Below are positions 31,875 to 34,316 of a stretch of 36,636 nt of DNA, piece after piece. Made by a program: the position numbers and the translations under genes. The DNA is taken from the IMG/VR virus record IMGVR_UViG_2778261643_000013; one strand, given 5' to 3'. Under the pieces are notes generated by a model that saw only the letters and a program-made list of their open reading frames with translations, had not been told where the DNA came from and searched no databases. This DNA is from a virus (lineage: Duplodnaviria; Heunggongvirae; Uroviricota; Caudoviricetes). How positions within the stretch are numbered: the stretch's first letter is position 1; each line of letters begins with the position of its first letter.

Positions 31875-34316
31875 ATGAGCACTGATAAAGAAGAATTTGC
31901 ACTATATTGCGAAGCAAAAAATGACAAAGTAAGAAAACGCCTAGGAATTAAAGGTGGTTTTTACTGGACTACAGCAAAAAAATTATCTGTTGCAATCTCC
32001 CGCTGCATTACCGCAATGGATGACAACGATTATGATGAAGACGACTTTAAAAAACCCGTCCGCGTCAATTTGCCCGTTGTTGACGACCTTCCGCCAGAAG
32101 GCGTGTTTGATACTGAATTCTGCAACCGCTATGAAAAAGGCGGGAAAGATGGCATCACAATGACATTTATCGGCCCTTCCCCCTCTGTTCAGGACAAACC
32201 AGCCAGCACTGACAATACCAACATCAACGGCGAAGACATGACTGAGATTGAGGAGAGCATGCTTCTGCCTGTCTCCGGTCAGGAACTGCCCATTCGTTGG
32301 CTTGCTCAACACGGCAGCGAAAAACCAGTAACGCACGTTTCACGCGACGAACTCCAGGCATTACACATTGCACGGGCTGAAGAACTACCGGCTGTTACTG
32401 CCCTGGCTATTTCGCATAAAACCAGTCTGCTCGACTCGCTGGAGATTCGCGACCTCCACAAACTGGTTCGTGACACTGACAAAGTTTTCCCTAATCCTGG
32501 TAATTCAGACCTGGGACTAATAACTGCTTTTTTCGAAGCATACCTGGACGCTGACTACACTGATCGGGGTCTGCTGACAAAAGAGTGGATGAAAGGAAAT
32601 CGTGTTTCACGCATCACCCGCACGGCTTCCGGTGCTAATGCTGGCGGTGGGAACAAAACCGATCGCAATCCGAATTTAGTACACACCCTCGACACACTGG
32701 ATGTGGAGATTGCAGCAGCCACACTTCCGATGGATTTTAATATTTATGAAATTCCGGGCAGCGTTTATCGTCGCGCAAAAGAAGTAGTCCTGAACAAAGA
32801 AAGTCCGTTCAAAGAATGGTCCGCAGCACTTCGTGCAACCCCGGGTATTCTGGACTATTCCCGCGCCGCTATTTTTGCACTTATCCGAAGCGCACACCCT
32901 GAATTTTATCACTACCCGGGACGCCTTCAGGGGTATATCAACGCCTATTTGACGGAAACTGATCACGAGACCCCCAGCAAGGAAACTCTCACAGCTGCCC
33001 GGCATACGCCGGAAAAAGATATCCTGGAAGAAATTAACCGCGAGGTGGTTACTGAGCGTGAAACAGAAGAAGAAAAACCACAACCATCTGACGCAATGGC
33101 AGGTGAACAGGCAACAACTGAAACAATGGAACCGGATACAACTGAACATGGCCAGAACGCGCAGTCGCTGGATGCTCAGTCGCAGGTGAGTTCCGCTAAC
33201 CAAGTAAAAGTCACCGCTGACGAAGTAAACAAAATTATGCAGGCAGCCAATATCAGCCAGCCTGACGCCGATAAGTTACTTGCTGTATCGCGTGGTGAAT
33301 TTGTTGAGGGGATTAGCGACCCTAATGATCCGAAATGGGTCAAGGGGATCCAGACTCGCGATTCTGTGAACCAGAACCAGCATGAATCGGAACGGAACGA
33401 CCAAAAAGCGGAACAAAACAGCCCAAATGCGTTACAAAACGAGCCAGAAACGAAACAATCCGAACCAGTAGCGCAACAGGAACCGGAAAAAGTCTGCACC
33501 GCCTGCGGTCAGAGCGGTGGCGGCAACTGCCCTGATTGTGGCGCGGTGATGGGCGACGCAACATACCAGGAAACATTCGATGAAGAGAATCAGGTTGAAG
33601 TTCAGGAAAATGATCCGGAGGAAATGGAAGGCGCTGAACATCCACACAAGGAGAACCCTGGCGGCAATCAGCATCACGCCAGCGATAATAAAACTGGCGA
33701 GGCGACAGATCCCTTAATTAAGGTGAATGGTCATCATAAGCTCACATCCACCAGCAGAGCGGGGATTCATCTGATGATCGACCTTGAAACCATGGGAATA
33801 AATCCCGATGCCCCGATTATCTCAATAGGCGCAATATTTTTCGATCCACAAACCGGAGATATGGGACCGGAATTTAGCAAGACCATCGATCTGGATACTG
33901 CTGGCGGAGTCATTGATCGTGACGTCATTAAATGGTGGCTGAAGCAATCACGTGAAGCGCAGTCTGCCATTATGACCGATGAAATCCCGTTAGATGATGC
34001 ACTACTGCAATTGCGGGAATTTATCGACGAAAACTCCGGTGAATTTTTTGTTCAGGTCTGGGGTAATGGGGCCAACTTCGACAACGTGATTTTACGCCGT
34101 TCATACGAACGACAGGGTATCCCCTGCCCATGGCGCTACTGCAACGATCGCGATGTACGCACAATCGTTGAGCTGGGGAAAGCCATAGACTTCGATGCCA
34201 GAACTGCTATCCCATTCGAAGGTGAGCGCCATAATGCACTTGATGACGCTCGTTACCAGGCAAAATACGTTTCAGCTATCTGGCAAAAACTGATCCCGAG
34301 TCAGGCTGATTTTTAA
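31875..34316 (+). CDS. Large multidomain protein: RecE-N-like region, zinc ribbon, C-terminal DEDDh 3'-5' exonuclease
   Basis: 813 aa; [16 protein letters not shown] zinc ribbon (33496-33543); C-terminal [16 protein letters not shown] and [10 protein letters not shown] exonuclease motifs (33760-34313); occupies the exo/recE slot before xis-int. Confidence 0.7.
   Translation: [813 protein letters not shown]

Follow-up and report, generated by a model that had tools for sequence, protein, structure and literature searches.

The window analysed here, IMG/VR virus record IMGVR_UViG_2778261643_000013 (36,636 nucleotides of Caudoviricetes DNA), raises the question of what a phage without RecT does with a large protein that begins like RecE and ends like a DEDDh 3'-5' exonuclease. 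The gene in question (31875-34316, + strand) starts at ATG and runs without interruption for 813 aa in the list of open reading frames (ORFs). An earlier sequence-only reading had placed it in the slot before xis-int that holds exo-bet in lambda or recE-recT in Rac, and xis (34375-34578) and int (34578-35603) do lie directly downstream. It is virtually certain that the protein joins the N-terminal region of RecE (aa 1-615) to a DEDDh domain of the DexA/EcD/Rv2179c type (about aa 633-813). The DEDDh domain occupies the place of the PD-(D/E)XK 5'-3' nuclease of RecE, and there is no recT. As a description of the gene, a domain-swapped RecE variant with a DexA-family nuclease fits best, both families being known. 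Its parts, in coordinates of the window, are as follows.

31875..34316, + strand: whole gene, encoding the 813-aa mosaic exonuclease (ORF list, Pfam, NCBIfam)
31875..33719, + strand: RecE-like N-terminal region, aa 1-615, non-catalytic (BLASTP, NCBIfam)
32043..32441, + strand: PF06630 Exonuc_VIII segment, aa 57-189 (Pfam, E = 3.8e-36; 125 bits, cut-off 25)
33495..33539, + strand: zinc-ribbon-like CxxC...CxxC motif, C541/C544/C552/C555 (computed positions)
33720..33770, + strand: 17-aa joint, aa 616-632, between the end of RecE homology and the start of PF16473
33748..33755, - strand: Chi octamer GCTGGTGG inside the joint (motif scan, sequence read)
33768..34283, + strand: DEDDh 3'-5' exonuclease domain (PF16473), aa 632-803 (Pfam, alignments, Foldseek)

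Both halves were recognised by independent searches, in line with the sequence-only reading of a RecE-N-like part followed by a C-terminal DEDDh domain. Residues 58-615 are 58% identical to residues 50-591 of the K-12 Rac RecE in BLASTP, with no similarity past RecE residue 591, and the PF06630 match that characterises the RecE N-terminus is present. The NCBIfam RecE equivalog NF007259 aligns with aa 1-616 only (model positions 1-603 of 877) and reaches 945 bits against a cut-off of 1269, so the whole protein does not score as RecE. At the other end, PF16473 ('Rv2179c-like 3'-5' exoribonuclease') is matched over model positions 2-177 of 177 (E = 8.8e-66, 221.4 bits against a cut-off of 27). 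The DLE, GNGANFD and H-x4-D motifs noticed earlier were located at D636-L-E638, G730-NGANF-D736 and H786-x4-D791. Residues D636, E638, D736, H786 and D791 align with D7, E9, D119, H186 and D191 of DexA; this full catalytic pentad is invariant in alignments with DexA, the EcD-like protein described below and the stand-alone phage exonucleases.

Structure prediction gave a DEDDh fold class for the C-terminal half and no usable fold for the N-terminal half. The AlphaFold2 model of aa 530-813 was of moderate quality (mean predicted local distance difference test score (pLDDT) 54, about 55-84 in the domain) and serves to assign a fold class rather than for fine comparison. In Foldseek, RNase T, Orn, Cap18 and RNase AS each matched it at a probability of 1.00 (target TM-scores 0.45-0.59), and all of its matches were DEDDh proteins, including Rv2179c (4HEC, 4HVJ, 4OKE) and TREX1-like proteins. 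No RecE or lambda-Exo fold was found among the PDB matches of this model, and a tblastn seed of RecE residues 596-866 had no match in the window; a canonical RecE/lambda-Exo fold at the C-terminus, which the sequence-only reading had named as the finding that would speak against it, was thus not encountered. The model of aa 1-420, built from a 19-row alignment, was mostly of low confidence (mean pLDDT 51, pTM 0.29), its fold could not be assigned, and Foldseek found no PDB match below E 0.5. A profile search of PDB sequences returned DexA as its sole match, through the C-terminal domain, leaving the N-terminal region without a relative among PDB sequences.

The CxxC...CxxC ribbon and an acidic linker in front of the nuclease had also been pointed out from the sequence. 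They are present (aa 569-632 carry a net charge of -9), but not as additions to the protein: the ribbon and the acidic linkers are RecE's own N-terminal parts, because the 58%-identity stretch (aa 58-615) includes them. The same motif is aligned in the Rac RecE, and it is absent from the Atlantibacter and Citrobacter fusions in our alignment.

The protein is not an unusual one. The gene is neither rare nor unrecorded: its product is 100% identical to WP_097430268.1, a '3'-5' exonuclease' of E. coli KS-NP019, and its class was noted in 2025 (PMC12315714). Identical NCBI copies are already named 'exonuclease' or '3'-5' exonuclease', with no role assigned beyond that, and some phage records carry the misleading label 'exodeoxyribonuclease VIII'. 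The full-length gene occurs in 1243 of 5426 complete E. coli genomes. We found no description of the RecE-N::DEDDh fusion itself in the literature.

Given this architecture, the relatives of the DEDDh domain are the main guide to its activity. T4 DexA (8KEL; S87A/D90A mutant 8KEN) is the sole PDB structure reached by sequence (E = 5.6e-5 with the single sequence and 7.7e-10 with the profile). It belongs to the same Pfam family, has an identical catalytic pentad and shares the D90 position, kept here as Asp708. It differs from the window protein in being a stand-alone 227-aa protein of a virulent phage, 24% identical, with extra loops, with Trp152 where the window protein has Cys756, and without RecE-N. 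A 189-aa EcD-like protein, which we found via a primer given in PMC12153337 and which starts MIDTET and has Ala78 as described there, carries the same PF16473-type domain and shows 37% identity (E = 6e-35). EcD, which is stand-alone, differs in having Ala at the D90 position (Ala78) and Trp at the W152 position, where Asp and Cys stand here. At the D169 position of DexA, in a poorly aligned loop, we read Ala in the window protein and Ser in the EcD-like protein, the latter in conflict with what PMC12153337 states for EcD. The mycobacterial enzyme Rv2179c/RNase AS (Mycobacterium tuberculosis) shares Pfam family and fold but is a chromosomal, stand-alone, poly(A)-specific exoribonuclease; the PDB sequence search did not reach it, which makes it more distant than DexA.

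T4 DexA and E. coli EcD are both 3'-5' DNA exonucleases (PMC12153337). Judged by its motifs and relatives, the window protein is very probably a 3'-5' exonuclease of the DEDDh kind that works from free 3' ends, and DNA is the likelier main substrate, a preference we hold with only modest confidence and because the closest characterised relatives are DNA enzymes. The residue at the W152 position of DexA is Trp in DexA, the EcD-like protein, mEp235, epsilon34 and phiSTEC1575; among the RecE-N fusions, aa 756 (DNA 34140-34142) varies between Cys, Tyr, Val, Ile, Arg, His and Trp. This variability suggests substrate contacts that may have been relaxed or altered once the DEDDh domain was fused.

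Relatives of EcD are themselves phage-borne. We noted them in the early operon of the P2-like Klebsiella phage 3LV2017 (L053, 3315-3893) and on viral IMG/VR contigs (L017, L027, L030, L033). In PMC12153337, where EcD is published as a bacterial 'HREX' defence, prophages are not mentioned (0 occurrences of the word), and EcD may belong to phages instead of being a gene of host defence.

The second half of the question concerns the missing partner. Seeds of RecT, Bet, Erf, Gam, Abc2, phage SSB and lambda Exo had no tblastn match in the window, nor in the whole genome of phage Tritos, which has the same gene arrangement. A Pfam scan of the ten larger ORFs of the early region likewise revealed no annealase, and the PGAP annotation of the KS-NP019 prophage lists no protein of the RecT, Bet, Erf or Sak type, all in keeping with the absence of an annealase noted earlier. 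The gene is followed directly by xis instead of recT, and its immediate neighbours are ydfD and xis rather than genes for an annealase, SSB or anti-RecBCD protein. The Rac RecE is likewise a large early-left gene shortly upstream of xis-int and shares the N-terminal ~600 residues, among them the PF06630 segment, zinc ribbon and acidic linkers. It differs in its C-terminal PD-(D/E)XK nuclease (RecE 564/606-866), so that opposite polarity of digestion is expected, and in the downstream genes recT, ralR and rcbA, which are missing after the window gene. Without an annealase, a pairing of the RecET type is excluded, and the protein may have a role outside classical single-strand annealing.

The genome is rich in Chi sites. 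The window contains 13, against 1.40 +/- 1.16 expected; the largest count among 100 shuffles was 5, and 0 of 100 reached 13, although long residence in the chromosome as a prophage could partly account for the enrichment. Eight of the 13 lie on the minus strand, which is the strand of the structural genes. Tritos has 11 Chi sites. The average density in E. coli is 1 per 4.6 kb (PMC12315714), and that of the window is higher. Lambdoid phages having neither a Rec module nor a RecBCD inhibitor show Chi enrichment, and at least one grows better with RecBCD (Bobay et al. 2013; PMC12315714). The window matches this 'no Rec module, Chi-rich' lambdoid class (PMC12315714).

Stand-alone homologues of the domain do occur in recombination modules. 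In mEp235 and epsilon34, proteins with 56-58% identity to the C-terminal domain are encoded in the early-left operon between SSB and Abc2, beside Erf, and the DnaQ-like nucleases of such modules are regarded as genuine Rec-module nucleases (Zheng, Casjens, Davidson, Amundsen and Smith 2025, PMC12315714). Their occurrence in Erf-SSB-Exo-Abc2 modules ties the DEDDh domain to phage DNA recombination functions. The epsilon34 gp34 and mEp235 Exo proteins differ from the window protein in being stand-alone (about 182 aa) and flanked by Erf, SSB and Abc2, whereas here the domain is fused to RecE-N. Two further classes from the same study bear on the gene. 'Sporadic' DnaQ-type genes near int, outside Rec modules, are not counted as Rec proteins, and the window gene is in the same situation as these; 'RecE-2' proteins are RecE relatives without a nuclease, which have the RecE N-terminal region in common with the window protein and differ from it in that the latter has a DEDDh nuclease (PMC12315714).

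Homologues and their loci show how the RecE N-terminal region is distributed among nucleases. A search with aa 1-616 against 1.8 billion representative proteins yielded 263 clusters only. Among 80 representatives of at least 450 aa, sequence seeds identified a RecE nuclease end in 22, a DEDDh end in 15 and neither in 43; Pfam found no nuclease family in the 10 of these 43 that were checked. P0131 (DEDDh) and P0281 (PF06630 + PF12684, precomputed) are 77% identical over 650 N-terminal residues and unrelated thereafter. The loci read for neighbours number about a dozen and come from E. coli genomes and phage records, the scan of one genome per species having yielded only 11 loci. Within this sample, the versions with a RecE nuclease that are near-identical to Rac RecE have recT after them in 5 of 5 loci, K-12 included, while RecT, Bet or Erf is nearby in none of seven DEDDh fusion loci (the window locus and six others). 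The adjacent RecT/Erf/Sak annealase that could have undone the sequence-only reading was therefore found neither here nor in the six other loci. Since tail type tracks RecT in the loci read, with the breakpoint at the RecE domain boundary, nuclease and annealase appear to be exchanged together.

The fusion is widespread. At about 90% nucleotide identity or more, the DEDDh part occurs in 4039 of 5426 complete E. coli genomes (74%), with up to 7 copies per genome and 5-6 copies in the sampled O157:H7 genomes, and the same Pfam pair was found in Citrobacter, Salmonella, Atlantibacter and Enterobacter. The best 120 matches of the homologue search are copies of near-identical sequence from E. coli or Citrobacter. 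The catalytic pentad is conserved in nearly all fusions; the representative P0137 has lost 2 of the 5 residues and P0284 has Gly at the first Asp in our alignment. Compared with a 94%-identical copy, the ratio of nonsynonymous to synonymous substitution rates (Ka/Ks) is 0.18 for the whole gene, 0.14 for aa 1-400, 0.14 for the DEDDh domain and 0.29 for aa 400-615; values for the linker span 0.29-0.5, and for the DEDDh domain against Tritos-type alleles the ratio is 0.12-0.13. The gene is intact and, by these ratios, maintained by purifying selection on both halves. A 94%-identical copy lies on JAGZPX010000007.1 (L037), labelled as a Veillonella parvula metagenome-assembled genome, a label that almost certainly results from wrong binning of a contig from an E. 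coli prophage. In tblastn against plasmids, the DEDDh domain was found mostly on non-mobilizable records, with 4 conjugative ones and no link to IncF/IncC plasmids.

The joint itself retains a hint of its origin. Val617 (GTG) corresponds to Met in other fusions ('MNGN...'), which suggests that the DEDDh unit may formerly have been a stand-alone gene with its own start at that Met. An internal start at M634 or at the GTG of Val617, giving a free DEDDh protein, would be speculation. The Chi octamer at 33748-33755 (-) sits at the mosaic breakpoint, by coincidence or as a trace of how the fusion arose.

How might such a protein serve its phage? We tentatively propose a RecE-N-tethered 3'-5' exonuclease for DNA ends that would act during lytic growth with the host RecBCD-RecA and without a phage annealase, a role that we consider possible but short of probable. 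Induction or infection would switch on its production along with that of the division inhibitors encoded beside it. Using two metal ions, it would take nucleotides off free 3' ends, DNA being the most probable substrate. The RecE N-terminal region would be an exchangeable tether or scaffold for whichever nuclease is attached, bringing it to one partner or substrate at DNA ends. The enzyme would then process phage DNA ends alongside RecBCD-RecA instead of forming half of a RecET-like annealing pair; work alongside RecBCD-RecA is suggested because the phage has neither annealase nor RecBCD inhibitor and is rich in Chi. The explanation as a whole we favour over the others, at a level just under an even call. 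Several points weigh against it. The role of RecE-N is drawn from its distribution only, its model having a mean pLDDT of 51. 3'-5' exonucleases normally remove the 3' tails that RecA needs and tend to inhibit recombination, and int-proximal DnaQ-type genes are explicitly not members of Rec modules (PMC12315714). An RNA substrate is possible, PF16473 being named for Rv2179c/RNase AS, and anti-phage phenotypes have been described for relatives or analogues, namely EcD (PMC12153337) and the TONDO DEDDh proteins (PMC13344964). Finally, the scan that points to expression in the lytic operon was a crude consensus search for promoters, and expression in lysogens is possible.

Of the other explanations, defence is the strongest, and we still regard it as unlikely. 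Here the protein would be a superinfection-exclusion nuclease of the 'HREX' type, cutting incoming phage DNA with modified bases, such as the 5-hydroxymethylcytosine (5hmC) of T-even phages, from its 3' ends. In its favour, 74% of complete E. coli genomes retain the DEDDh part, and many of these have defective prophages. The neighbouring gene dicB reportedly gives protection against phage (Ragunathan and Vanderpool 2019). EcD, a DexA homologue whose relative is 37% identical to the domain, digests 5hmC-containing T4 DNA and gives resistance to T4 from a plasmid (Kang et al. 2025, PMC12153337). The same work, however, reported that the DexA W152 equivalent is needed for cleavage of 5hmC-DNA and that EcD, lacking the D90-equivalent Asp, is a dimer-only form inactive on unmodified DNA (PMC12153337); the window protein has Cys756 in place of the Trp of EcD-like and stand-alone versions, and it keeps Asp708. 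Furthermore, no promoter-like site belonging to the gene itself was found; it lies inside an operon that needs repression, DicB and YdfD both being toxic, and P2-like phages carry the EcD relatives among their own early genes. PADLOC returned only a weak generic DEDDh match (E = 4.9e-5) and no assignment to a defence system. An exonuclease directed at RNA, either restricting RNA phages as TONDO does or processing phage or host transcripts, is improbable. Rv2179c, from which PF16473 takes its name, is an exoribonuclease, and this speaks for RNA. So does a 2026 preprint in which prophage DEDDh exonucleases with variable auxiliary domains block MS2 and Q-beta (TONDO, PMC13344964), the window protein likewise joining a DEDDh domain to a large additional region. 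Against this, the TONDO screen took only matches under 500 aa (PMC13344964), the nearest characterised sequence relatives are DNA exonucleases, with DexA the sole PDB sequence match, the extra region is that of a DNA recombination enzyme, and the plasmid-borne copies of the domain sit mostly on non-mobilizable records, only 4 being conjugative.

Less probable again is a scavenging role during lytic growth, in which host DNA fragments would be reduced to nucleotides, as has been described for T4 DexA (PMC12153337). The position of the gene in an early lytic operon, its expression there being inferred, would allow for this; no endonuclease partner is annotated nearby, though, and the RecE-N region would be left unexplained. 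Degradation of the host chromosome is not known from lambdoid temperate phages. That the gene is an accidental in-frame chimera without function, carried along with dicBF-xis-int, is very improbable. The Chi site at the joint, the mosaic nature of lambdoid genomes, the copies broken by insertion sequences (IS) in O157:H7 and in K-12 ydfE, and the loss of catalytic residues in P0137 would fit such an origin. Yet both halves are under purifying selection (Ka/Ks 0.12-0.3), like fusions with divergent N- and C-terminal parts occur in Escherichia, Citrobacter, Salmonella, Atlantibacter and Enterobacter, and the gene is intact in the deposited complete genome of phage Tritos. The sequence-only reading had preferred the degradation of nucleic acids or signals to recombination, and as degradation of second messengers against host immune systems this is the least credible of all. 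Some DEDDh enzymes (Orn, NrnC-like) do degrade short linear oligonucleotides, and Cap18 of CBASS, a DEDDh exonuclease, is among the fold matches. Cyclic oligonucleotides, however, offer no free 3' end, and since DEDDh exonucleases require one, degradation of cyclic signals is unlikely. Neither the family nor the gene context points to signalling systems, the PADLOC match is weak and generic, and a signal-degrading role in place of recombination is not supported: stand-alone homologues lie in Rec modules, DexA and EcD cut DNA, and RecE-N is shared with true RecE.

Returning to the tethered end-processing exonuclease, a wider proposal can be built on it, which we offer as an unlikely extension. 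RecE-N (about 600 residues) would be an autonomous, exchangeable targeting module whose payload is a PD-(D/E)XK nuclease where RecT is present, a DEDDh nuclease where RecT is absent, or none, the DEDDh version serving annealase-independent end-processing with RecBCD and Chi. The common partner at DNA ends may be, for example, RecBCD, SSB or the replisome. In our opinion, it is this exchangeable N-terminal module of RecE that gives the locus its main interest. The RecE N-terminal domain has no known function, and the full-length form of RecE boosts linear-linear recombination (PMC11611040); the N-terminal two-thirds thus lack an assigned function in a protein whose full length is used for linear-linear 'direct cloning' recombineering. 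RecE-N moves intact between nucleases of opposite polarity, under purifying selection, with RecT lost wherever DEDDh is attached in the loci read. If the targeting-module proposal were true, it would give the RecE N-terminus a function and indicate how 'Rec-less' lambdoid phages handle DNA ends, in the commonest class of E. coli prophages. The gene is among the most widespread of E. coli prophage genes and lies in the dicBF operon studied for cell-division control, and it bears both on the claimed reliance of Rec-less lambdoid phages on Chi and RecBCD and on the claim that E. coli DexA-like proteins are defence nucleases. Nothing is overturned, as the two domains are well known and so is the mosaicism of lambdoid phages.

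The window is a lambdoid prophage at tRNA-Ser(CGA) beside mtfA. Because the gene is 100% identical in KS-NP019, the PGAP annotation of that strain was used and projected onto window coordinates. The + strand order is a repressor-like gene, a RelB/RelE-ParE pair, DUF1391 (ydfA-like), ydfB, ydfC, DicF, dicB, ydfD, the exonuclease gene, xis and int. The features around the gene are as follows.

31179..31230, + strand: DicF small RNA (Rfam RF00039; 76.7 bits, gathering score 48)
31405-31593, + strand: dicB (PGAP annotation, ORF list)
31590-31781, + strand: ydfD/DUF1482, directly upstream of the gene (PGAP annotation, ORF list)
34375-34578, + strand: xis (DUF4224), directly downstream of the gene (Pfam PF13986, annotation)
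34578-35603, + strand: tyrosine integrase (annotation)
35656-35745, - strand: tRNA-Ser(CGA) attachment site (tRNA call)

Most simply, the gene is the promoter-distal member of a dicBF-type early-left operon, because no promoter-like site was found on the + strand between 30127 and 34716; this was a crude scan for a sigma-70-like consensus, which leaves expression in lysogens possible. The operon is an intact version of the dicBF operon of the K-12 Qin prophage. The arrangement is common to phage Tritos and to prophages at ompW, rspB (the Qin site) and ynfA, which differ in attachment site and in the xis-int module. At ynfA in O157:H7 an IS interrupts the copy, and strain 1943 has an intact 823-aa exonuclease at the rspB site. 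In K-12 Qin, the same slot holds the pseudogene ydfE (L005, 6079-6999), cut by IS2. The idea that the window protein is the intact form of K-12 YdfE was rejected, as BLASTP found no similarity between them. Residues 80-255 of ydfE are instead 58% identical to the middle of P0163, a 901-aa RecE-N-like::DEDDh mosaic, and on this similarity ydfE reads as the stump of a sister mosaic allele.

Another early-left module combination was seen in E. coli ECMA0423 and Shigella flexneri SFBU1023 (L043, L044), where a RecE-N-like gene matching aa 1-473 only is followed about 1.3 kb downstream by a homologue of lambda Gam (81% identity). In the window, the RelB/RelE-ParE toxin-antitoxin pair (29490-30015, + strand) lies after the repressor-like gene and before the dicBF-type operon begins, which is where lambda has rexAB. 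The KS-NP019 integrase is marked as frameshifted by PGAP; the window ORF has 341 aa and ends about 50 bases before tRNA-Ser. The prophage also carries four tRNA genes, namely Gly-UCC, Thr-UGU, Lys-UUU and one with a CAU anticodon (Met according to ARAGORN, Ile according to PGAP). Together with the epoxyqueuosine reductase QueH gene (21722-22031 and 25174-25860, both on the - strand, for the tRNA genes and QueH), they form an unusual pairing of tRNA and tRNA-modification cargo.

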